Under the pieces are notes generated by a model that saw only the letters and a program-made list of their open reading frames with translations, did not search any database and had not been told where the DNA came from. A stretch of DNA of 64,000 nucleotides from Moniliella sp. 'wahieum' (Eukaryota): the NCBI GenBank assembly GCA_003971905.1, contig RSEE01000011.1, positions 1 through 64,000 on the forward strand, written 5' to 3'. Shown here piece by piece: positions 4,965 through 54,885 of this stretch (within the stretch, counting starts at the first letter, position 1; each line of letters begins with the position of its first letter). Both the position numbers and the translations under genes were made by a program.

Positions 4965-6165
4965 TTATGCAGCACAGCCACATGTGAGGAACCTGAGGAC
5001 GCCTGGCGACTTGGGCTGTGTCTCGGCTGCAGCCAATTCTCCAAGGGGAAGAGCTGATACGTGAGCCATCATCCCACCAGTTAGCTGGGATGGGCCAGGT
5101 GTAGCAGAAGCATGTGGATCCTCCACAATGCTGTCGTGGACGGTAACTTTGCTTGCGGTAAGTGGATTTATTAGCCCAGCAGTGGCCGTAACGGATGAGG
5201 TATCACCGGATGATGGCCACGGGAGCGATGGTCGTGGCCCCACTGATCCTTGACAGGTGTTGTGCGGCAGGGGACTGGCTTTGTGGTGGCTGCGCGGGCG
5301 CAGCAACAGGCAACGCAGCGGGCGTAGGCGACGCAGAGGTGCCAGGGGTATAATGAGACGAGCAAGCATCCCAGCCATGTCCATCATCAAGAAGCATCCA
5401 GTCGTATTGCTGGTCTTTCGCCTCTCCTGGCGCTTGAGCACTTTCCTGAAATGTTCCCGCAAAAAGTCGGAGTTGGGGTCCTCTTCAAAGTCAAGCTTGC
5501 GAACGCAATGGAGGTAGATGGAGAACTCTTCTGGAAAACCATTGCAAAGGCCTTTGATGGGAGTCGTTTGCTTCTCCTTGCAGATCGTTAAGTCCCTGCC
5601 AAGGGAACGCTCCCCGGAGAGGAAGTACATTAATACGTGGCCTAGCGACTCGAGGTCGTCACGGCGCGACTGCTCACGGCCTAAATGGGTGTTGATAGAC
5701 ATGTACCGCGCCGTTCCCGAAAGCGACTTGCGCTCGCGGTAAGGAATGTGCAGCTGTCAGGTTTAATGTCGCGGCGGTATATGAGGTTCTTTTAGTGCAC
5801 GGTCTGCACCCGTGTGATGGTCTGGCAGGTGATCATGCGCACAGTTTTGACGAAAATTTTGCGGCCATGCACACATATCAATCAGGTCGGAGGATGTTAT
5901 ACAGTCCCTCCTGGCCAAAGTAGTAGACCTGGGGCACGCCGAGACAGCCGGACAAGATCTTGCACGAACGGTACTCGTCGCGCAGCTAGGGCGCGCATGG
6001 CTCTTGCGCGGTTCAAACTTAATAGCGAGACGGTCTGGCTGTTGTTAGCAGGTTGGTGCCTTCAAAGATGACGCCAAACGAGCCTTCGCCAATCTTGCGA
6101 CCAACGTGGTAGTGGATCCCAACGACGCTTGACGTGGCGCCGGAATAGCCCGCGTGCGACGTCAT
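4965..6165 (-). pseudogene. Casein kinase I (Yck1/2-Cki1 type) pseudogene
   Basis: Recognisable CK1 blocks: [89 protein letters not shown]-terminal FLTCGC. Stop codons at about 5986-5988 and 5792-5794. Three multi-codon deletions, one removing the DFG segment. Confidence 0.8.
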
Positions 6166-6421
6166 GGAGGGAGAGGATGAAGAGAAAGGGGCTGCGGTAG
6201 TGGTTGAACGTTTAACCTTCAACCTCAACTCAACGCAGTATTCCGCACACAGCGTCCAGATCGAGGGGGGGCGGCCCAGGGCGGCCCGCCAAAACGCGGG
6301 GCGCAACTGCGGAAACATGCATTCCGCTCGCTTTTTTTTCTGCCCTCCCTAGTCGGGCTGTAACCAATCGGGCGGGGTTCCCTGCTTCTCGTCTACCATT
6401 CCCTCGCCTTCAAGCACCGTC

Positions 6422-41700: not shown

Positions 41701-42853
41701 TTATAGGGAAGATGACGCACGGCCAGGCTTGAGAACCCCCAATTCGGTCACAGGGGCTTCCGTCTTCTCCGGAGACGCAGGTTTGGCCTTGGACGTCATG
41801 CGGAGTTTGTGAGCGAGACTGGTTTCCGACATGCTCTTCTTATTGAAAGGGACCGTCGGCTCGGCCGAGAACGGGGTGGCCATCCCACCGGCCTTGGCAG
41901 CCATCGAGGCGAGGAGAGCAGGTGGGAGAATGGGCATGTTGGTACCATCCGCGGAGACGCGTTGCTTGGCAAGACGCTCACGAACGGCCGTGGCGAACGC
42001 GCCGCCGGCCGCTTGCTGGGTGGAGCAGCTGCCGCCGCCCAGGGTGTGAGAACGAGCAGTGCGGCGGCGAGCGGGCTTGCCCCCGCTCATCGCAGCACCA
42101 GGAGCAAAGGAAGCGGGGGTCTGGTTGTCGCACTGCGGCATCGTGCTCGCTTGAATCAGCTGGGCTAATTGGTGCGCCGACAAGCCCGGGGCCGGCATGG
42201 GAAATGGAGGAGGAACAAAGTTGGCCAGGCTTGCATCGGTCAGCGGGGGCGAAATGCCGGTTCCCCATGACGAAGGCGGAGGCGGGTTTGTGGGCGGTGG
42301 CAAGGGGGCGGCGGGAGGCATGCCAGGGATAGGGAACTGGTTGCCCGCTTGTTGGTAGTGAAGCAACATGTTCTGCAGCCAGGCCGCCGTAGCGTCTGGC
42401 GCACCCGGCGGGGTACTGAGCAGCTTGTGCCCCTGGCATCGAGCGCAGAGGGCAGGGAGTCTGGAGAGGCGGGGGAAGGTGCCAGTGGGCGATTGGTCGC
42501 ACAGATGGCTGTCAACGGTGGAGGAGAGGGAGCTGTCGGAGGTGTCGGTGTTGAGGAGAGGGACTGCGGGTCAAGGCCCAAGTTGGACAGGTCCGAGTCG
42601 CTTGCCGAAGGAGCGGACGGGGAGTCGGACGCGGTCTGGCTGGGCTGCATGTCCACCCCTCGAGTGCCGAGGCGGGCCAGGCGGCTGGGGCATGTCGGAG
42701 CCCATGGTGAAGAGGTAGAGGGCCATGGCCTGGTCCAGTTCGGCTGGGAGCGGGCTGGAGAGCAGGCCATCCTGGCCAGACGAGGGCGTCGGGGGGGCGG
42801 GGCGCAGGCAAGCGGGGGCTGCTGGGCGAGGGCGTCGAGGGCGAGGGGTGCAT
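38727..42853 (-). CDS. SREBP/Sre1-type bHLH transcription factor with downstream hydrophobic segments; boundaries approximate
   Basis: Basic region HNAIERRYRN.INDRIAILRNAVPALR with the SREBP-diagnostic Tyr (about 41415), helix 2 KLNKATILTKSTEYIYYLK, hydrophobic stretches after the bHLH (about 40660-40850). Intron 41646-41720. Confidence 0.82.
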
Positions 42854-44533
42854 GGCGAGGGGTGGTGGGGGAGAAGCAGGAGGGGCGGGGCGGGGCTTGA
42901 CAGCCGGCGTGGCTGGGGGCGGGTGGGTGATGGGCGGCGGGGCGGGAATGGTGCGAGTGCGGCGGGGCGAGCGCCAGCGGCCGTGGCAGCGCGGTGGGTG
43001 TGAGTGGGCAGTGGGGACGCTGGCGGCAACCAAACCCACCTGCGCCCGCTGTGCTGGGGCAGATAGGACGATGTGGGAGCCACCCGCCCCGAGCCGGCGA
43101 GGACGCAGGATGCGTGAGGCGCACGATGTGTGATGGGAAGCCAGTCCCAAGCAGGCGTGTGAAGCATGGGAAGCTCCAACGCACGCGGGCAGCGACCAGT
43201 GAGCAGGGTCCGGCACGGGTGACGCTGGCGCTGTGCTGGGCGCATGCAGCATGCAGCATGCACGGCGCGCTCCGCTGTGGTTTCAGCCGCTCAGCATTCA
43301 ATTGAACAGCAACTGACTCTGGCCGACTCAACGCGCGCGCGCATCGCAGCCGCTGCGGATTGGCCTATTTGCCCTCCCCCCACCCGCAGCCCATTTTGCC
43401 CTGCCCTCGCCGCATACGTCCACCCGTCCAACCAGCCTGCTCGGCTGGTTGTGGTGCGGTGCTGCCTGGGTAGTCCCAGCACTTGGATTTATTTTCTCCC
43501 GTCTCTCACACACACACACGATCATCTCATCGATGGATCATCCCTCCAGCGCCACTGGCCCCCTCCTTCCGCTGCCGATCTCCCGCAACTCGCGCTCCCA
43601 GCACCCAGCGCCCATCGCCCTGCTGCCCCCTTGGGCAGTCCCCCAAGGGTGATGCCGGCCCATTACCATTCCCGCCGAGGATGGCACGTTGAGCACGTGT
43701 TGAACGTTGGTTGAAAATGGACGGGCACAACAGCTTCTTAGCACCGTTCCGCTCGGTCCACTGCCTGATCTCCGAGTCTCAATCTCATCAGTGGTACTTG
43801 GTCCGTACCTCGCAGTACGTGCAACGTTTAGCGTTGAACGTTCACGCGCACAGTACGTTCCCGCTGCGCGGGATCCGCTGAACGTTTGAACAAACAAAAC
43901 TGGTCCTGGCGCCCAGTGCCGTGCCCATCCAACGTATCCAACCCGAGGACAGGTACGGAGTACCACTGAGTCCTACTGGTACCCTTGCATTGTATGCTTG
44001 GCAGGGCAGCGCAGGGCTTGGAAGGCCGGGTGGGCCAGGGTCGCCCAGGGTCGCCCAGGGTCGCCCAGGGTGGCAACGTGGAAGGACGCCCACCATGCAG
44101 CTCGGGGGGCGGATCAGCGCTCAGCGCGCCCCGGGCACCAGAGGACCCTCGAGGCACTGTGCCGTTGGGCGCGTGCCGCCGGGGCACGCCTGTGCCGACG
44201 CCGGCGAATCGATCACCGGTCAACCATCTCATCGACCATGCCGATGGCGCGTAGGGCGCCGGTCGCAGCAGGGCGCGGTGCCAGTGCGGCGCCACCCCAA
44301 CCCAAATGAGCCCATCGGGCACCTGTCCAGGCCGGCCAAACGAGCTGCATGTCACATGCCCCCCGTCGCTTGTCGCCCGCCGCGCCGCTCTCTCTTCCGT
44401 GCGCCTGCGCTCAGCTGGCGCTGAATGGCCTGAATGGGTGTCGCTTGTGAAACGGAAAACAAACATCGGTGCAAATGTTCCCAATCATTCCAATGTGGTC
44501 GTGCTGGATAACTGGGGCTCTGTAATATTAAAT

Positions 44534-44620
44534 TCTCCGATAGTTTAGTGGCTATGACACGTCCCTGTCACCGAGCAAGGAGGAACGGACGAGACCCGGG
44601 TTCGATTCCCGGTCGGAGAG
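44534..44620 (+). tRNA. tRNA-Asp(GTC) with a 15-nt intron (44571-44585)
   Basis: Acceptor stem TCTCCGA/TCGGAGA, anticodon stem CGTCC/GGACG, loop CT-GTC-A, T arm CCGGG-TTCGATT-CCCGG, discriminator G. Oligo-T Pol III terminator at 44624-44633 and an AT-rich upstream element. Confidence 0.95.
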
Positions 44621-45065
44621 TCCTTTTTCTTTTGCAAAAAAATGCTATGGAGCCAAACCAACCCCTACTGCGAGCTCACCGCGTTTCACGTCCTGAGGTC
44701 CCCCTCATGGCCGCGAGAGGGAAGCTCACACTACATCCCGCGCCATACAAAGTCGTAAGCGTCGCATTAGGCAATGGAGGAGCAGGTGGTCAAGGGCAGC
44801 ACAAAAAGATGAGTGTGGCGGGACCCTCTTATGCGCTCAGCGAGGACAGAGAGGCAAGGAACCCCCCCCATATGTAGATGCAACAAATCAGGTCATCAGT
44901 CTCTGTATAAATAGGAAGGCCAACGGTGGTGGGAACGCAACCACAAGCATGGGCAAGCCAACAACCGAGGGAATGGGAGGAGGGGGGGGGGGGGCAGGGG
45001 CAAGAGCAAGGGCATACTCATCCGCAAGGCAATGCAATGTAACGAACGCCTCCTCCAGCCTCGTT

Positions 45066-48000
45066 TCAATTCCAGAGGGGGCAAACCAACCCCCACGATC
45101 CATCTGCCCCGTTTGGAACTCGTTGTCGGCGTCCCACTCTTCTGCCGGCGTCTGGGTCGCATCGCCTACGGGGACGACGCACGATAGCAGTTTGGCGCAG
45201 CCGAGCAAAATTGACTGGCTTGGTCAGCCAACCGTCGAGACCGTCCGAACGGAGCGTCTCGCGCAACGTCTCTTCCAGCGTTGCGCTGACGGCCAAGATG
45301 GGGACGCGGCGACGCGGCGACGCGCTTGACGGGACCGGGTGCTGAATTTCGACGGCTCGGATCGCACGCGTGGCACCTTGGCCATCGAGCACAGGCATCT
45401 GGAGGTCCATCAGCACCACATCGATATCTCGATTGGCGGTGAACCGTTGGAGCGCCTGTTGGCCGTCCTCGGCCTCTTCCACCGACGTGTGGCCATCCAT
45501 CACGAGCCGCTTGTTGAGAATCATCCGTTCACCGAATTGTCATCCACAACCAGGATTCGTAGTGGCGGGGTGGCCTTGGGGCGTTTGGCTCGGTCCCCAG
45601 CCTGCTTGGCTGACACAACGGTGTGGACACCGGTCGCACTGGCTCGGCGAGCAGCAAAGTCGGGCCGCTTGGGAACCTTGAGCGTCGGAGCAGGTGAAGC
45701 CGACGGTGCATTGCGCGCGTCAGGAGCCACACGGTTTCCAGCCGACCGGCGGGGGCCACACCAATTTGGGTTGGGGAAGACTGAGGCAAGGAGAGACGCT
45801 TGTCCCCATCTGCAGATGCAGTAGGGTGCATCGACGACGACGCACCGAGCGCGGCTGGGACGGGGCCAGTCTGTTGCTCGATCAACGCCGCTGATTTTGG
45901 CCCCGACACAGTTCGTATCACAGCGGCAGCGGTAGTGGGAGGGCAGGGTGAAAGGGAGATGAACTTTCGTCAATCGAGCTTTGACGTAAAGTAGGTCGAG
46001 CGCCAGGACGGAAGGAGGCATGGAAGATCCCATGCTGGGAGCCCATGGGCTGATGGGATCGGCCAGCAAAGTGAGAGGCAGGCGAAGGTAAGCGTGGTTC
46101 CCATGCCTTCTTGGCTATCGACCCGAAGCTGGCCCTTGAGTAGCTTGACCGTGTGCGCCACGACGGCCAAGCCGACCCCTAGACCGTCCTTGGACTTTTT
46201 GGGTTCGGGAACAAACGAGGACTGGCTCGTGGCCCCTGTTCTTCCTTCCAAGGACGTGAGACACCAGGATCATAGGTCACTTCGGCATGCGTCACTGTCG
46301 GTGCACCCACCTCCACCTTGATCGTCTCCACTTCTTCCAAGGCACGGAAGATGGACTCGAGCAAGGCGCGCGGCATGCCTTTGCCATTGTCGCTGATCAT
46401 CAGCTCGTACACTGCCATGGGCGAGAGCAGGACTTGGCGTCCGTGTCGACGGGCTGGGGGAGCTGGTGCAGCTTCACCTCGACGGTTCCCGTCTCCGACC
46501 GCCGAGTTGGCAAACGAGTTGGAGAGAACGTTGATGATGAGTTGGCGGATGCGGCACCGATCGCTAACAACCAAGGCGTATCGGCGTTGAGGTTGGTGAC
46601 CAAGTTGATGCCCCGCCGGCTGGCTTCGGCTTCAAACAGCTGCACGGCATCTTTCACAGCGCCACAAGGTCAAAGGTATCGAGCGAACGCTGGGGCCGTA
46701 ACCGACTCTTCGTCGGCAGATAGACGGGTGAGGTCGAGCAACTCATTGACAGTATGGAGCAAGGAGCGACTGGCAGAATACTGTTGCGGATGTGCTCTTT
46801 GGCCTCGGCGTCCAAGGGGCCATCGAGGGTGAGTTCGAGAAAGCCAAGGATCTGGTTCAGAGGCGTGCGCACATCGTGGCGCGCTTGAGAGAGGAGGCGG
46901 GAAGTAAGTTGGGTGAGCCGGGTGGCCTGTTCTTCTTTCTTTCCTCCATATGGAGATGAAGCGGCCAAACGTGCGAGATGGTCTCAGCCGCATCCAGATC
47001 CTCTGCGAAAACGCCAGCGACTCGTCCGCAATCGTTTGCATCCACACTTAAAGCTCTTCCGCGGCTCCAGCTCCGAGTTGGCATCGGTCTCGGCACCACC
47101 GCCAGGACGATAGTCTGACTTGTACGGTTTCCAGCCCACCGGACATGCTTTGTCTGAGGCTTGCGCATGAAGCACATAAAGTCCGTCCCGGACCCAGAGA
47201 GGGGGATGAGAATGAGGCCAGCGATCGAGGTGAGCTGAAAGGGAAGAACCATGTCGGTAAAGCACTTGAGCACATTTGACGTGGACAGAATGGTCGTGTA
47301 CCGCTTGAGACGAAGATATCCGGCCAAGCCCAACACTTCTTGGCTTGAGTCGAGGGGGCCGAGGATCTTGACCTCCTTGCCCATACTGATCACACCATGT
47401 CCGCACGAAACAGGTGGAAGAGCTCTTCGGGGTCCGAGTTAAAGTAGCCTGAGGGCCATCGTCGCAGGCCGCGACATGCTCAACAAATCCTGCCGGTTTT
47501 GCAAGCGAGCCGCCAGGGTAAGCCGCTCAATGTGTTGGCTGATCGAGTCAGCCAAAAGACAACAAGCCGACGAGCGGAAACGCGATTCGCTTGCCGTGAG
47601 GCCCATAGTTGTGCAGCGCAATCAATCCCCACAATTGGCCAAACGCCATGAGACTCAGGCTCATACTCGCGCGTACCCGCATGTTACTCAGATACTTGAG
47701 GTGGATTGGTGACATGGCCCGCAACATGCAGTGGGTCATGTCGAGGGGTGGGTCGCGCAGCAGAAAGCTACAAGACGAGCGGTGGGCTGGTCCCGATCGT
47801 ACAACAGTCGAATGCGATTGATCCGGTACAGGTCTCGAGCTTGTGGGGAATGTCTGTCAGAAATCGGAGGCCGAGTACAGGTCGTGAGTGTCGTCCATGA
47901 AACGAGTTCGGTTACGACTTGGCCATTGTAGGCATGGTCAAATTGGTACACCATCACTCGACTGTACCCAGACGTTACCTCGGCCAGGATGCCTACAACG

Positions 48001-49661
48001 ACACGGGGCAAGTCGGCAGATCCTTGGCGGCAGCCAGTTGTTCGTTGGCTTGGAGCATAATCGTAACTAGGTCTACCTCCTTGGATTGCTTGGACCTTTG
48101 ATGGGCCCGGGAGCGACGTGCACTAGTAGACATAGAGAGCGCACGCAAGGGCTTGGCCCCCGAAACAGTGGATTGCTGCTTTTGAGCCTCGGTCGGGAGG
48201 TACGGTTGAGACTCACGTCCTCCTCTTCTTGAATCGACCCTTGCTCCTCGGACAGATTAGGCAAAAGGTTGGCATCGGACGGGGTGAAGGACTCCAGTCG
48301 CGGCCTCCCAATGCTCTGCCGCGATAGCGATGAAATGCCGTCGCTAGTGCTCACAGTGCTTGCCAAGCTTGAACTGGTCTTGCGATTGAATGGTTGGGCC
48401 AACATCGATTGGGGCGCATGGCCGCTGAGGCGGTTTCGAGCGGATTGAGATGATCATTGACCAGTTCTAACTCGAGCACCAAAGTGGCTTGCCTGTCCTC
48501 CGGTGCCGCAAGAGGGGTGGGTGCCGTGTGCAACGCAGCATAACAAGCACGGGCTGGCATTCCTGCGGGACCTGGAATGGAAAGCTTGAACTGCTGCGGG
48601 CCAGAATGGACCACTCCTCCCCCGTCATTTCTTCAGCAACGTCGACATGAAGCCAAGCAAGTCCGCCTGTTCATCGTCGAGTAAGTCGCAAATGAATCAA
48701 GATCAAAGATCCTGGGGGTGAGGCCCAGCAGTTTTCTCCACGTTCTCCGAGACGAGCTGGACCTTGAGTGACCCTTCGTCATCACTCTGGAGAGTGATCA
48801 GCACACCATAAGCCTTGCACAGCTCCAGGAGCGTGGATGGGCTGTACAGCGAGTTGATGGAGATGGAAAGGTTAGTTGCAGGCTACCACAAAAGCGGATG
48901 TATGCATACCTCGTCCCGGCAACGGTATATTTGGTTTGACCGACCGTCGAGGATCATGTTTCCTTCAGGGTTTGAATATGCTTGAAGCGCGATGTGGCAA
49001 CAGATCATCAAGGTGGTCCTTGGCCTCGGCTTGTATCGTCCGCGGGTGGAAGTGGTGTTTACTAAGGGGTTGACAGCGTGACAAGAGGCGTAGGCAAGTC
49101 GGGAGGCTTGGCCGAGCATTCGAGGGTGGGACAGAAGTACTTTGTATGCTCCTTCCTTCTGGGCGCCAACGTCGCCTGCGGCGTACGTGTTGCCTATCCA
49201 GGCAGATACGTCGGTGGGGATACAGGTTGGGCTGCGTGTAGCGCATCGAACGAAGCGGAATGGCTGCCATTAGGGAAGGAGGCCATAGGCGGGAAACATC
49301 TGGAGCATGGCCGCACCGTCAAGGCGCCAGAGCCCGTGACAGCCGCGCCGTCGTCAGAGAGAACATTGGTGGAGCTGATGGCTGGCTCGGGCAGCAGGGC
49401 TGAGTTGGGGCTCCTCCATTCATAGATGCCAGCGGGGAGCTGGTCGAGCGGTACAACCTGACGGCGCCTCCCCGGGGCATGCTTCGGCGAGAGGTCGGGC
49501 CAAGAGGGCGCCGCGGGGGTAACGGACACAGCAGAAGAGAGGGAAGATATACCCGCCGTCGGGGCGGGATGAGGGGAGGTGTCGAGGCGAGCAAGGCGGA
49601 ATGAGTGATGCGACCTGCATGGGGGCCAGCCGTGGCGAGAAGAGTCTGGCTCCGATGGCAT
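45066..49661 (-). CDS. Fungal phytochrome (PAS-GAF-PHY-HisKA-HATPase-REC hybrid histidine kinase); boundaries approximate
   Basis: YRCRDE|PIHAPG (bilin-binding Cys), RVMVYQFD, TDIP.QARDLYRINRIRLLYDRD, LRAMSPIHLKYLSNMRVRASMS, PHY tongue LEPRKSF, HDVRTPLN, ISDNGKGM, GLGVGLAVV, LRILVVDDN...VVLMDLQMPVLDG...KP, terminal GGWF. Confidence 0.93.
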
Positions 49662-50044
49662 GTGTGATGATGCAGATGATGGCCCGGAATCGATAAGGGA
49701 AAATTGGTAATCGGCAACTGGAGACGCCGAGAGGAGGACAGCTGGCGGTGGTGGCACTGATGAGCGCTGAGCTGAGCACGGCGAGAGTGGGGGTGGTACC
49801 GCGGCCGTGGTGGTACGTATGATCGATCACTTTGATCGTTTTGAATATGGCTTGGCAGATGATCGCGATTCGAGTGGCACATATCAACGTTCAACTATCG
49901 TCGTCTAACGCCTGCTGGCGCTGGAGGGCTACGGAGCGAGGAGCGGGGCGACAGTATTCTGATGGGGTTGCGATACACGTTTGCATCTTTTTCGCCGGCC
50001 GTGCGCTAGCTTCACGGCACCGCCACAGTCCCCCATCTCACGCA

Positions 50045-52453
50045 TGTTGGCCTAGGGAGCCGGACGGGCAGAAGGATGAGGAGAAGGTGATGGATTGGAG
50101 CCAGAGTTGGGTCTGGGTACAGAGGCATCTATATAGGAGGCTGGACTAGGCACAGGGACAGTGAGTCACACAGGAGAGAGTGCAGGGCACAGGGACAGTG
50201 ACACGCAGGGACGTCAGCGTGGAAGCCGATGGAACCGAGGCGAACCTGGTCTACCGACTGGGAGCCAGAGGATCACAGTCAACACCCCCGCTGGCCAGGG
50301 AACCCGGAGACATCGGTTGTGGGATGAGCTCCTGCCAGTGGATGTAGAGAGGGGAGGACTTGAGTGGCAACCGGACGAATGGCCTGGAGTTTGTGCATGG
50401 CCACACGACTGGCCTACACCCCCGCTGTCCAGGATGACACCTGAACGAGCCGAGCGCTTGTGGTTGGTGTATTGTGCGACCGCCAGATGCTTGTAGAAGT
50501 CTTAGAAGTAAAAGTAGTAGGGGTTGCGCCCCGAAGCGATTTGGTGGGCAAAAGTAAAAAGCACCAGTTATAGGTGTAGTGAAAGAAAATTGGAAACTTG
50601 GAGTAAATGCGGTCCAAGGTCGTTTGGCATCAAAATTGGATGCGTTTGGTAGTTGTTTGGTTCCGCATGCCTGGTGCCAGTGGGGTCCATTGGGCATGGG
50701 AAATGAACGGGCGCTATGCGTCAACCGTCTTGATCTGTTTGGGTTCTCTTTGTTGTTGAAAAAGAGGAGTGGAAGAAGTTGGGTGACCACCCCCCCCCAT
50801 CCTTTCCCCAGGTGCCCGGATGAATTGGCAATCCGGGGCGTGTAGCCGTGGGTGGGGCACTTGATGAGCAGCCACCCCCGCTTTCTGCGATTCGCCTGCG
50901 CCGTTTGTCGTTGGAGGAATTTCGTCTCGTTGACGATACCCGACACGTTTTGTTCCGTCGTGTGTTGTCCCTAAAAATCATTGCCCCATCTGTGGGGGAC
51001 GAGTGTGCCGATTGTGGCGGTAGTATGCAGATTGTAACTCTGTTGGCCTAGGGAGCCGGACGGGCAGAAGGATGAGGAGAAGGTGATGGATTGGAGCCAG
51101 AGTTGGGTCTGGGTACAGAGGCATCTATATAGGAGGCTGGACTAGGCACAGGGACAGTGAGTCACACAGGAGAGAGTGCAGGGCACAGGGACAGTGACAC
51201 GCAGGGACGTCAGCGTGGAAGCCGATGGAACCGAGGCGAACCTGGTCTACCGACTGGGAGCCAGAGGATCACAGTCAACACCCCCTGGCCAGGGAACCCG
51301 GAGACATCGGTTGTGGGATGAGCTCCTGCCAGTGGATGTAGAGAGGGGAGGACTTGAGTGGCAACCGGGACGAATGGCCTGGAGTTGTGCATGGCCACAC
51401 GACTGGCCTACACCCCCGCTGTCCAGGATGACACCTGAACGAGCCGAGCGCTTGTGGTTGGTGTATTGTGCGACCGCCAGATGCTTGTAGAAGTCTTAGA
51501 AGTAAAAGTAGTAGGGGTTGCGCCCCGAAGCGATTTGGTGGGCAAAAGTAAAAAGCACCAGTTATAGGTGTAGTGAAAGAAAATTGGAAACTTGGAGTAA
51601 ATGCGGTCCAAGGTCGTTTGGCATCAAAATTGGATGCGTTTGGTAGTTGTTTGGTTCCGCATGCCTGGTGCCAGTGGGGTCCATTGGGCATGGGAAATGA
51701 ACGGGCGCTATGCGTCAACCGTCTTGATCTGTTTGGGTTCTCTTTGTTGTTGAAAAAGAGGAGTGGAAGAAGTTGGGTGACCACCCCCCCCCATCCTTTC
51801 CCCAGGTGCCCCGGAATTGGCAATCCGGGGCGTGTAGCCGTGGGTGGGGCACTTGATGAGCAGCCACCCCGCTTTCTGCGATTCGCCTGCGCCGTTTTGT
51901 CGTTGGAGGAATTTCGTCTCGTTGACGATACCCGACACGTTTTTCCGTCGTGTGTTGTCCCTAAAAATCATTGCCCCATCTGTGGGGGACGAGTGTGCCG
52001 ATTGTGGCGGTAGTATGCCGATTGTGGCGGTAGTATGCCGATTGTGGCGGTAGTATGCCGATTGTGGCGGTAAGGTGCCGATTGTGGCGGTGGTGTTGTT
52101 GGGCGGGAGGACGGGTGTGTCTTGTGGGCTTGGCGGCTTAGCTTGGGCTTGTAGGCTTGGGGGTGGGCTTGCTTGAAGAGCGCTCCCCTTCCGGGGGGAT
52201 CAGATTGTAGCTCTGTTGGCCTAGGGAGCCGGACGGGCAGAAGGATGAGGAGAAGGTGATGGATTGGAGCCAGAGTTGGGTCTGGGTACAGAGGCATCTA
52301 TATAGGAGGCTGGACTAGGCACAGGGACAGTGAGTCACACAGGAGAGAGTGCAGGGCACAGGGACAGTGACACGCAGGGACGTCAGCGTGGAAGCCGATG
52401 GAACCGAGGCGAACCTGGTCTACCGACTGGGAGCCAGAGGATCACAGTCAACA
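50045..52453 (-). mobile_element. Non-autonomous miniature LTR retrotransposon (TRIM-like), tandem array LTR-int-LTR-int-LTR
   Basis: Three 240-bp direct repeats (50045-50284, 51041-51280, 52214-52453), each TGTTG...CAACA. 5-bp TSD ACGCA at 50040-50044 and 52454-52458. G-rich PPT-like tract on the minus strand next to LTR1 and LTR2. No gag/pol recognisable. Confidence 0.9.
51997..52091. repeat. 20-bp tandem repeat GCCGATTGTGGCGGTAGTAT, about 4.7 copies, inside the LTR element
   Basis: Directly visible. Only one copy remains at the equivalent position (about 51007-51026) of the other internal domain. Confidence 0.9.
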
Positions 52454-52929
52454 ACGCACGCTAGCCACTTGCCACTGAAGGCACTATTCTAGCCACTGTG
52501 ACTAGCCACGGCGACCAGAATTGCCAGCCATGGGTGGCTAGCCACCGTGCGTGCACTCTCGGCTACTCAGATGTCACAGTCTCAGATCTCATATCGCATG
52601 TATCATGCATGAAGCCTGAGGCCCTGAGGCGGCGGGGGACAGTGTGGGCGAGCTTGTACGGCGGACCAAAATTGACGCGATGAGGACGAGGACGTACCGG
52701 TGACCGGGTCGGGTCGACAGGGGCCGCGGGGATCGAGATTCGATGGCCTCGATCCATCGATCATCGAGAGTGAGATTGAGCGCTTTGCTGTTACATGTTA
52801 CAGTTCAACGTTCAGTACGTTCAGTGCCTGTGGGTGGCGAAAAATAACAGGCGCAAATGTAACCACGGAGAGTCCCTCTCGCGGGCCACCAGTGACCGAG
52901 CGGATTAATGTACGTACGTTTTTAATGCC

Positions 52930-53077
52930 CCGGTGACCGATGACCGGTGACCGGTGACCGTTGCTTGCCTGTCCCTGCCTGTCGTACTGCGCCTGCTGCT
53001 GCTGGACGCGGGCCAGTAAATTGCGGCTGATTAATGATTGAAGCTTGAAGCTTGAATTCAAGCTCGAGCTCGAAGCT
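52930..53077. repeat. Heptamer palindromic arrays (ACCGGTG)n and (AAGCTTG)n
   Basis: Arrays at 52930-52960 and 53028-53077. Confidence 0.82.
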
Positions 53078-54885
53078 CTGCTGCACCGTGGCTGTTGTGA
53101 GCGGCACTGCCCTAGTCAGGTAGATGCTGGTTTTAGGCTCAGCCTGCGCCGCGTGTTCTATCTGTGGCGTCTCCACGTGGTTCCCATTGGAAGCCGCACG
53201 TATATAGTAGACACTGCTGGCGCATCCCTCTGTCCTTCCTTGCCACCTCCACCTCTTCGCTCAACTCGTTACCTCGTTCTCGCTCATCTACTTCTAGTAG
53301 CTCAGACCGCGCCGTCTGCCTGCCGTAGTACGTCGCCACAGCTCGAAGCTCGAAGGCCAACTTGGCATCACCCTGTCACGTGCCACCTCGGTTTGCCCGG
53401 TGCAACGGGACCCACCCGTCGTCAGTGTCAAGCGTCAAGCTTGAAGCTTGACGAGCCCAGTAGATGACCGAAAATTCTGCCTAAATCCTATGCCGCTCCC
53501 GCTCACACCAGTCTCTCTCCCTTGCCAGTGTGGGCAGCATTCCACCACATCCAACAGACCCGGCATTCCACTCAGCAGCATGCAGCGCAAGCATCGCCCA
53601 CTCCAGTCCAATCCACTCTGCCATCACCACCACTACCACGTTCTCCCCACCCACTTAATATGCCTTCTTCCGCCTCCTTGCCTTTTAACCAACATCCAAA
53701 ATGGAAACACACATTCATTCGAACCTTAGTACTTTGATTCGTTGTTACAGGCTATACCAAAGAGATGGACAGCATCTGCCTGTACTACGGGCCAAAGGCC
53801 GTACAGGCTTCATGGATTTCCGTCTTCACCTCAGACATGCAATGCATCTGGCAACTGGATCCAAAGATTATAGCACTTCATGGTTCTGATGCGTTGCTTA
53901 TTCAGTTGTTGTTTGGGTTTTGCTCCAATACATATGCCCCCCCCCCGTACGCCCTCATTAGGCCCCTCCCCCCTGCCTCTGTCCCGCAATCAACTTCATT
54001 CTCTTTCAGGCTGCCCCCCCACACACTCTCCATTTGGCCCCTCCGCTTCCTTACGTATCTGCCACGCATCACCAATGTTTCGCACTCCGCAGTTCATTCT
54101 CAGTACCAACACTCCTCTTTGGTCGCCTCACACCCCCACAGCCTTTGCCTAATGGCTTAGCAAGTATTATGAAATACGCCCAGTGCGAGGCCCCGACTTT
54201 TCCCTCGAAGAAAGCACATCCTCTGGGTGGCCGCCGGCGACTCTGACACAGATGGCATGCCGGTTATACGTTTCACGGAGGTTCTTTACGAGAATGCGGT
54301 ATGAGACCCTGAATTCTGACGGTCCTCTCGATGGTACTGCAATCGCACTAGTAGTCGTGGTAGTTGTGGTCAAAGCCAATGATCAAAATGCCTACAGCTG
54401 AGGAGGGACATGAATTAGTGTGTGCGTGACGTATGGGTTACCTCCATTAGCGCGTCATGGGGGAAGAGGATGTAATCCAGTAGGATGGGGAGATTCTGAC
54501 TACCATGGCTATAGTTAACTGTTCGTCTCCGGCCGTTGTGCGTTGTGCGGCTTGCAAACACAAGCGTGGATTTTTTCCTTCGCAAACATCTCGCCCCTTG
54601 CCTGTCACGTGCCCAGCTGACATAAGAATGCGTGCGAATTGGCATGGGCGCGGGGCGTGATGGGTGATGGTCAGCGCTGCCTGGCTGGGCTGGGCAGCTT
54701 CCATCCCACCATCCATCCATCCGCCTCCCACCAGCCGCGCCACGCCCCCGACGCCGCCGCCCTCCGCCGTGCGCCCGTCTGCCCTTCCCCGTCATCTCCC
54801 CTTCTCCACCTCCTCCGCGCCCCGTCCCTCCCTCCCCTGCCTGCCCGCCTGCCTGCCCGCCCGTCCGCCCGACGCTGCCACCACG

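Follow-up and report, generated by a model that had tools for sequence, protein, structure and literature searches.

Organization of the array

The region under study lies in a 64-kb stretch of contig RSEE01000011.1 of Moniliella sp. 'wahieum' (the window, meaning the whole stretch of DNA that was analyzed), and its positions were re-derived to the base. Three LTRs of 240 bp each, letter-identical and bounded by TGTTG...CAACA, are separated by internal domains of 756 and 933 bp, and the whole array is enclosed by a single perfect duplication, ACGCA; the initial annotation had described this same arrangement, and we confirmed it at the coordinates listed below. The transcription sense of the array is the minus strand, and no other match to the element was detected elsewhere in the 64-kb window.

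50040..50044, no strand: target site duplication ACGCA, left copy; a single copy is present at the empty site on contig C28
50045..50284, minus strand: LTR of 240 bp, the 3' LTR of the array in element sense (from the sequence)
50285..50294, minus strand: PPT-like site ending GCGGGGG, abutting the 3' LTR (from the sequence); the boundary is common to copia families A (21 nt) and B (16 nt)
50285..51040, minus strand: second internal domain in element sense, 756 bp, non-coding, with 183 bp of the 5' leader missing
50419..50428, minus strand: second, upstream PPT-like site, whose use gives 372-bp LTRs in other copies
51028..51040, minus strand: junction primer site of 13 nt, a perfect complement of nt 28-40 of spliced tRNA-Tyr, with T facing A37
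51041..51280, minus strand: shared middle LTR, 240 bp
51281..52213, minus strand: first internal domain in element sense, full length, 933 bp, non-coding
51413..51422, minus strand: in the full unit, the upstream one of the PPT-like sites, 132 bp ahead of the LTR
51992..52091, minus strand: five 20-bp tandem repeats with a core resembling the primer site; putative landing place of the off-register join
52175..52182, minus strand: second primer box, 8 nt complementary to nt 19-26 of tRNA-Tyr
52183..52199, minus strand: small hairpin between the two primer boxes, forming a three-way junction in the RNA-tRNA complex predicted by cofolding
52200..52213, minus strand: outer primer-binding site (PBS) immediately adjoining the 5' LTR, whose 14 nt pair with spliced tRNA-Tyr(GUA) nt 27-40 except for one C-A37 mismatch
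52214..52453, minus strand: 5' LTR in element sense, 240 bp (from the sequence)
52297-52304, minus strand: putative TATA-like TATATAGA in the 5' LTR, a label given on reading the sequence
52454..52458, no strand: target site duplication ACGCA, right copy (from the sequence)

Both internal domains are copies of one sequence; relative to the longer one, the 756-bp interior is without the 183 bp adjoining the primer site. Apart from this, a single substitution falls within the primer site (the final 13 bases), and the two are further distinguished by 8 minor changes, for the most part indels of 1-2 bases. Read in element sense the order is thus LTR, C-form primer site, full interior, LTR, 13-base T-form site followed directly by a unit of the 20-bp repeat, remaining interior and LTR. 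The full unit of the window has five of these 20-bp repeats; four units are present in 55 of 77 copies.

Terminal direct repeats with TG...CA ends, a PBS after the 5' LTR and a purine tract before the 3' LTR are all present. A plus-strand orientation with a classical TGG primer site was considered and rejected, as the PPT, the helper-like boundaries and the tRNA match all lie on the minus strand. At the 3' LTR edge, 21 nt across the boundary that follows the PPT are identical in family A and 16 in family B. Loci L054, L130, L131, L132 and L159 begin at the second PPT, 132 bp upstream, and carry 372-bp LTRs in consequence; target duplications are shown for the first four of them.

The absence of a recognisable gag, RT or integrase, reported in the initial annotation, held in our tests: none of the three longest open frames of the internal domains matched Pfam, and tblastx of the interior against families A and B returned nothing below E 0.005. 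The longest frame compared with 1.84 billion proteins gave one repetitive match (E 1.5e-4) and no real relative; this stop-free frame of 229 codons was reached by 10 of 300 shuffles. Neither Pfam, the protein search nor tblastx lends support to the interior being a decayed gag-pol. An open frame of 300-308 codons is present in five copies, which we read as indel noise, a relic frame being the alternative. The 5' repeats of the interior weakly resemble the leader of family A (66% over 100 nt, E 3e-4).

Copy number, target duplications and age of the family

A DNA search of the genome gave at least 62 matches, with 40 of 188 candidates scored. Exact patterns combining the primer site and the LTR tip gave 102 matches for the C form only and 11 for the other form; the DNA was read at 100 listed matches of the first pattern, at all 11 of the second and at a few more loci. 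The mini element was found at 73 tabulated loci plus two found afterwards (about 75 places), its typical monomer consisting of 240 + ~920 + 240 bp, that is, ~1.4 kb. A motif-anchored script detected a perfect 5-bp duplication in 56 of 76 oriented clusters, with 52 different 5-mers among them, so that copies with different target duplications do exist. These duplications have a G+C content of 57.5%, like that of the window, with no strong motif. Indel errors or rearrangement of the copy account for several of the clusters that do not have a perfect duplication. At 20 of the 73 loci there are at least three LTRs, all in direct order, and at 16 of those 20 they lie under one perfect duplication.

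Six solo LTRs with duplications were also found, using a pattern that detects only part of them; three of the six are only 90-92% identical to the present LTR, thus the family is older than the current burst. Among metagenomes, 70 pattern matches were obtained and none was alike beyond the pattern.

Taken together, the non-coding interior and the 73 or more loci with 52 different 5-bp duplications bear out the proposal of a non-autonomous 1.4-kb element, and the data support its description as a young, non-coding, TRIM-like LTR family. Classical TRIMs are under ~1 kb, although definitions vary; we say TRIM-like because a monomer of ~1.4 kb is at or above the usual upper limit.

The insertion had been regarded as very recent, which agrees with two observations: across the 76 other full interiors the median number of substitutions relative to the majority state is 1, and the element is missing from the homologous site. 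That site lies on contig C28 of this assembly, in a second version of the region (84-93% identical) whose sequence continues without interruption through the target, present once as ATGCA, one substitution away from ACGCA. The insertion is accordingly real, and only one of the two versions of the region carries it. A comparable situation was observed for contigs C5 and C27, a homologous pair with 91-97% identity, where C5 has an empty site for an array of C27. Both carry near-identical copies of the mini element and, since these sit on both members of a diverged pair, the burst probably came after two genomes had been brought together in one cell, a reading that presumes phased contigs.

The same 76 interiors show a median of 8 gap columns each, and the small interior indels of the window are of a kind general in this assembly. 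On reading, the genes of the window look frameshifted, and the gene content appears to be that of a fungus. One environmental sequencing run yielded two short LTR-matching contigs, of 143 and 151 nt, and one of them crosses the boundary between primer site and LTR; the listed runs that contain the element included no RNA run, and no reads spanning the array were found in the sequencing runs searched.

A probable half-tRNA primer

The PBS consists of the 14 bases right after the 5' LTR and starts with GA rather than TGG. Using an anticodon-arm pattern we found 54 intron-bearing tRNA genes, 29 with a loop starting TTGTAA and 25 with TTGTGG; ten of the 54 were read, and of three for which ARAGORN output was shown, two were called tRNA-Tyr(GUA) with the intron at 37/38. 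The TTGTGG group appears to be of the tRNA-His(GUG) type, as judged from its anticodon. The common form of the PBS, with C opposite A37, pairs with spliced tRNA-Tyr nt 27-40 at 13 of 14 positions, and the rarer T form at 14 of 14; no third form was present among the 100 listed of 101 matches. The outer PBS of the window, mismatched at A37, has the usual form of the family. Beyond a small hairpin there is a second box, complementary to nt 19-26 of the same tRNA.

Duplex energies were compared over six tRNA types. With the Tyr half, none of 300 shuffles was as low as the real leader for any of the six leaders tested. With the mini leader, the raw energy was lower for the tRNA-Ala half (-39.9), a value that 9 of 300 shuffles matched, and this pairing is not anchored at the LTR edge. 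Judging from the complementarities to Tyr, it is very probable that the 5' half (nt 1-40) of spliced tRNA-Tyr(GUA), bound at a two-part primer site, serves as the primer of minus-strand synthesis; a primer ending with a 3'-OH at tRNA nt 40 is the rule described for hemiviruses (PMC1181622).

Both tRNAs share the core of the anticodon stem, and a tRNA-His(GUG) half could prime instead of Tyr or beside it, an unlikely reading that nevertheless has points in its favour: the C form pairs with His nt 28-40 at 13 of 13 positions, with one G-U and no mismatch, the core of the 20-bp repeat matches the His loop, the genome has 25 genes of His type, and the junction leader of the window binds His slightly better (-30.0 vs -28.2 with Tyr). 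However, the base that would be perfect for His is present in none of the 100 listed of 101 primer sites, position 27 and the second box fit Tyr only, all corrected sites shift towards Tyr, and the common site of family B was reached by none of 300 shuffles with Tyr vs 110 of 300 with His.

Other candidates were discarded or disfavoured. For tRNA-His as a first guess, no intron-less genomic match of His type was obtained, the single match being non-tRNA. A different Tyr isodecoder for family B was dropped, as the same arm was present in 31 of 35 matches (the 31 that were read). An 11-nt match to one tRNA-Gly intron is in the same sense, cannot prime and was taken as chance. Self-priming was set aside, the complement of the PBS not being seen in the LTR on reading the sequence.

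Putative helper families and a hybrid insertion

No autonomous parent with the same LTR was present among the primer-site matches listed (100, 11 and one more), in a search that would miss copies with damaged primer sites. The initial annotation had proposed looking for an autonomous partner with the same LTR ends; two autonomous copia families with the same primer system were found, in keeping with the claim that the element is mobilised in trans. Family A (19 primer-site matches, 5.3 kb) has an unrelated 210-bp LTR and the same C-form site as the mini element; family B has one primer-site match and at least 40 copies (40 scored of 177 candidates). Both encode protease, integrase, SH3 and RVT_2 in copia order, the Pfam order being Pol_BBD, rve, SH3 and RVT_2 in L091 and L130, and they are 58% identical over 971 residues. 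The primer sites of these helpers complement the tRNA anticodon arm ending at nt 40. In family B, 13 copies were read; 12 match directly only nt 33-40, while one has three substitutions, all of them towards the tRNA. From their domain order and shared primer system, A and B are probable Ty1/copia helpers that would lend Gag, RT and integrase.

Locus L130 combines a long mini LTR, a B interior, a B LTR, a mini interior and a mini LTR under one GAGGC duplication. The mini and B LTRs share their tips only and are otherwise unrelated. L130 is a single insertion of both and gives physical evidence for an encounter between mini and B intermediates. As to the main helper, the C form and the boundary sequence are clues to A, and the L130 hybrid to B.

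Formation of the array

In the window, the middle LTR is followed by 13 nt that span the tRNA intron site and are a perfect complement of tRNA-Tyr, and then by a 183-bp jump into the repeat. This junction was absent from all other loci read. Among the 176 LTR ends that were read, 80 were followed by a normal C site and 8 by a normal T site (two of these 8 in one array, L024). Three off-register joins begin like the primer site, namely those of the window (13 nt), L053 (15 nt) and L030 (5 nt), and all of them have T; in L053 the 15-nt tRNA-complementary tail comes after the terminal LTR of an array. The T form was therefore present in 3 of 3 off-register cases vs 8 of 91 in register (~9%; Fisher p = 0.0012, a post hoc comparison with n=3, in which three indel-damaged sites were counted as C by eye).

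Since the family site has C opposite A37 and the tail has T, the T would mark DNA copied from the tRNA itself, and it is likely that plus-strand synthesis sometimes copies the tRNA and leaves a single-stranded tail after the LTR. For Ty1 and Ty3, a plus strand that copies the tRNA is described as a dead end, with no inheritance of the primer (PMC5371799), which would explain why the mismatched site is kept in the family while the tRNA letter is seen at faulty joints. The T form could also be an inherited minor allele, given the 8 in-register sites, and this speaks against the tRNA-copy reading.

In the route that we prefer, with confidence that is evenly balanced, two cDNAs were joined before integration. 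The plus strand would copy the tRNA, giving a single-stranded tail of T form after the LTR; in the window this tail would pair out of register with another cDNA, at one of the 20-bp repeats that resemble the primer site, and be extended, the product being LTR, full unit, LTR, tRNA bases, shortened unit and LTR. Integrase would then insert the dimer in one step, which would account for the single target duplication. Joining before integration does occur, as L007 and L058 each contain two whole monomers joined as LTR, 1 base, LTR under one duplication; the L130 hybrid also backs this route. The structure of the window is equally predicted by a tailed cDNA landing on a resident copy, an observation that counts against the pre-integration step.

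In this resident route, a real though lesser possibility, the tailed cDNA would have annealed to a monomer already in the chromosome, by single-strand annealing of the Rad52 type, and the duplication of the resident would have been kept. It predicts the junction of the window exactly and has about 75 near-identical residents to anneal to; in Tf1, a single-stranded PBS end persists on about half of the cDNA, and events that do not depend on integrase give shared-LTR tandems upstream of the resident copy (PMC11042837). However, it leaves unexplained the dimers L007 and L058, with their one base between LTRs, and for L130 it needs two joins through ~20 bases of tip and primer-site likeness, because the mini and B LTRs are otherwise unrelated. 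Unequal crossing-over between LTRs of sister chromatids or homologues, duplicating the monomer after insertion, is the usual account of shared-LTR tandems (PMC5932611); the six solo LTRs with duplications show that LTR-LTR recombination occurs here, and it may hold for most other arrays, which have C-form junctions and exact repeats. For the window it is improbable: crossing-over expects identical interiors with the same primer site, but the window has C outside and T at the junction, its 183-bp loss begins at the final base that matches the tRNA, the element is absent from the homologous site, and three of the six solos are old.

Re-insertion of a pre-existing array in one piece, after transcription that runs across the middle LTR, as modelled for Cassandra in pear, would yield three identical LTRs and a fresh duplication (PMC4079214), and the 2.4-kb unit is well below helper size; we consider it highly improbable, as no second locus with the junction of the window is found among the loci read and the question is shifted to the origin of the parent array. 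Most improbable of all is that the array is an artefact of an indel-rich long-read assembly, a reading to which the median of 8 gap columns, the apparently frameshifted genes and the lack of spanning reads in the runs searched would lend themselves. An assembler would not invent a junction matching a spliced tRNA that is absent as DNA; moreover, the flanks join cleanly to the empty homologous site and a perfect duplication is present at 16 of the 20 multi-LTR loci.

The evidence thus favours a join via a primer-copied cDNA end, whether before integration or onto a resident, over chromosomal crossing-over. Of the two routes offered in the initial annotation, plain LTR-LTR recombination fits badly with the tRNA-type bases and the deletion, while strand transfer fits. 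The tRNA scar is an exception, because most other arrays carry the C form at their junctions, and these arrays may have arisen by any route. In a broader form, which we put forward tentatively, arrays would be built in the particle by PBS-PBS pairing of tRNA-tailed plus strands, the half-tRNA site alone would splice unrelated families, and the C/T difference would trace inheritance of the primer. If true, the C or T opposite A37 is a natural tracer that counts half-tRNA primer inheritance (~9% in register, 3 of 3 off register), and a shared half-tRNA site suffices to splice unrelated LTR families into one integrable unit, as in L130.

Comparison with known elements

The kind of element, half-tRNA priming and arrays are each already known. 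To this the present genome contributes a very young burst with by-products of reverse transcription that can still be read: tRNA-copied tails, the second PPT that leads to longer LTRs, end-to-end dimers, and a hybrid of parasite and helper under one duplication. Work on plants and yeasts has debated the origin of shared-LTR arrays, for the most part with no markers at the junctions, and proposals include pre-integration recombination (10.1101/452573), template switching (PMC1950507) and chromosomal exchange (PMC5932611, PMC7215508); here the one-base mismatch between PBS and tRNA supplies such a marker. We found no report, in the open-access literature, of tRNA-copied bases at tandem TRIM junctions.

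Multi-LTR Cassandra TRIMs likewise form shared-LTR arrays under one duplication, which make up ~20% of the intact elements in pear (PMC4079214, PMC7215508), compared with 20 of 73 loci here. Cassandra/Ajax LTRs have 5S-derived sequence, which is absent from our element: an Rfam scan to E 1 gave only three weak chance matches to RsmY and no 5S. Unlike in Cassandra, the route can be followed from the bases at the junction, and unrelated families are combined in one array. The template-switching complexes of Sabot and Schulman (2007, PMC1950507) are alike in their three LTRs, identical outer LTRs, single duplication and pre-integration origin; in that model, however, related RNAs are switched at their R regions as the minus strand is transferred, whereas here the joins are at the primer site and L130 joins elements that have no LTR homology.

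Tf1 is a self-priming Ty3/gypsy element. In Tf1/Tf2 tandems, as in our proposal, a single-stranded primer-site tail of the cDNA guides the formation of shared-LTR tandems, hybrids included, although Tf1 and Tf2 share long homology, unlike the mini element and B; the Rad52-type annealing route is cited there for Ty1 and Ty5 besides Tf1 onto Tf2 (PMC11042837).

Half-tRNA-primed Ty1/copia elements (Drosophila copia, Ty5, 1731, Osser and Tca of Candida) use a 3'-OH at nt 40 and have a PBS abutting the LTR and TGTTG...CAACA ends; the element of the window has the same PBS position and ends and is predicted to share the priming. They employ iMet or Arg(UCU), in contrast to the probable Tyr(GUA) here, and the window element encodes no proteins (PMC1181622, PMC4139406). 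In Candida, internal sites of both Arg and iMet are used (PMC4139406).

Priming by the Tyr anticodon region has been published for Copia elements of rust fungi and for Helenus TRIMs, e.g., Copia-50_PHord (Kojima 2024, PMC10886601). The PBS of Helenus matches the anticodon loop of a spliced tRNA and is shared with its Copia partners, as occurs here with the helpers; Helenus is reported in Pucciniales and a few Agaricomycetes, and the passages that describe it there do not discuss a tandem mechanism (PMC10886601). The interior of ~920 bp sets our element apart, as does the tRNA-derived Pol III promoter in the LTR by which Helenus is defined (PMC10886601), none having been found in the mini element, where neither ARAGORN nor Rfam gave a tRNA match. 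A box-A-like word and two GGTTC words are present, spaced 21 and 31 nt apart vs 43 in three real tRNA genes; the LTR may hold a decayed relic of a tRNA promoter.

Diverged region pairs

Some regions are present in the assembly as two diverged copies. Positions 42649-53722 of the window have their second copy on contig C28 (about 210000-218400, loci L156 and L158), and a region of contig C5 (L157) is paired in the same way with one of contig C27 (L084), the identity between paired copies being 84-97%. Such pairs resemble those of a hybrid cell, or of one with strong heterozygosity, and they serve as built-in empty sites for the insertions.

Composite, joined and rearranged copies

Insertions of the mini element (the non-coding LTR retrotransposon of about 1.4 kb) were also found in composite or joined form, each within one target-site duplication:

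L130 460-6875 (contig C37): one insertion uniting the mini element with autonomous copia family B, with a single GAGGC duplication
L007 and L058: two whole monomers joined as LTR-one base-LTR, with one target duplication each

Five mini copies carry five 20-bp repeat units in the 5' leader, and three of these copies (L001, L002, L003) lie on contig C11, a clustering that may reflect local conversion or an assembly effect.

Inverted or rearranged mini copies were seen at four loci (L022, L103, L129 and L133), including head-to-head pairs and an inverted solo LTR; at L103 two copies have their target duplications swapped, which suggests an inversion between them. L064 (around 5790-6250) shows a junction, lacking any duplication, between a 5' fragment of the mini element and a reading frame that, by its motifs, is putatively GMC oxidoreductase-like.

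Probable helper families

In family A, one of the two probable helpers, the LTR (L055 954-1162 and 6014-6222) contains in element sense 13 bases identical to nt 1-13 of tRNA-Tyr, through which strong-stop DNA could pair with its own primer. Another family A copy (L086) measures 3.7 kb after an internal deletion and has a perfect duplication. A tandem repeat of roughly 238 bp adjoins a family B copy (L087 533-1247), and its sequence also borders a mini copy without duplication (right flank of L011).

tRNA genes across the assembly, and further features of the window

Across the tRNA genes of the assembly, tRNA-Tyr and tRNA-His have in common the anticodon-stem core and U32/C38; introns vary widely from gene copy to gene copy. 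One identical score is shared by 41 tRNA-search matches; the three that were read represent a single tRNA-Ala(AGC) set in unrelated flanking DNA. At L015 the mini array lies upstream of a tRNA-Thr(CGT) gene (2919-2990) and stops 20 bp short of it. tRNA genes were close to only a few of the loci, and there was no sign of general tRNA-gene targeting by the mini element. Two further features lie in the window:

44533-44623: tRNA-like gene (ARAGORN), anticodon unclear, probably containing an intron
47736-49318: presumably a phytochrome-like gene, by its motifs

The latter is broken up over several frames, which is among the signs that the assembly contains indel errors.
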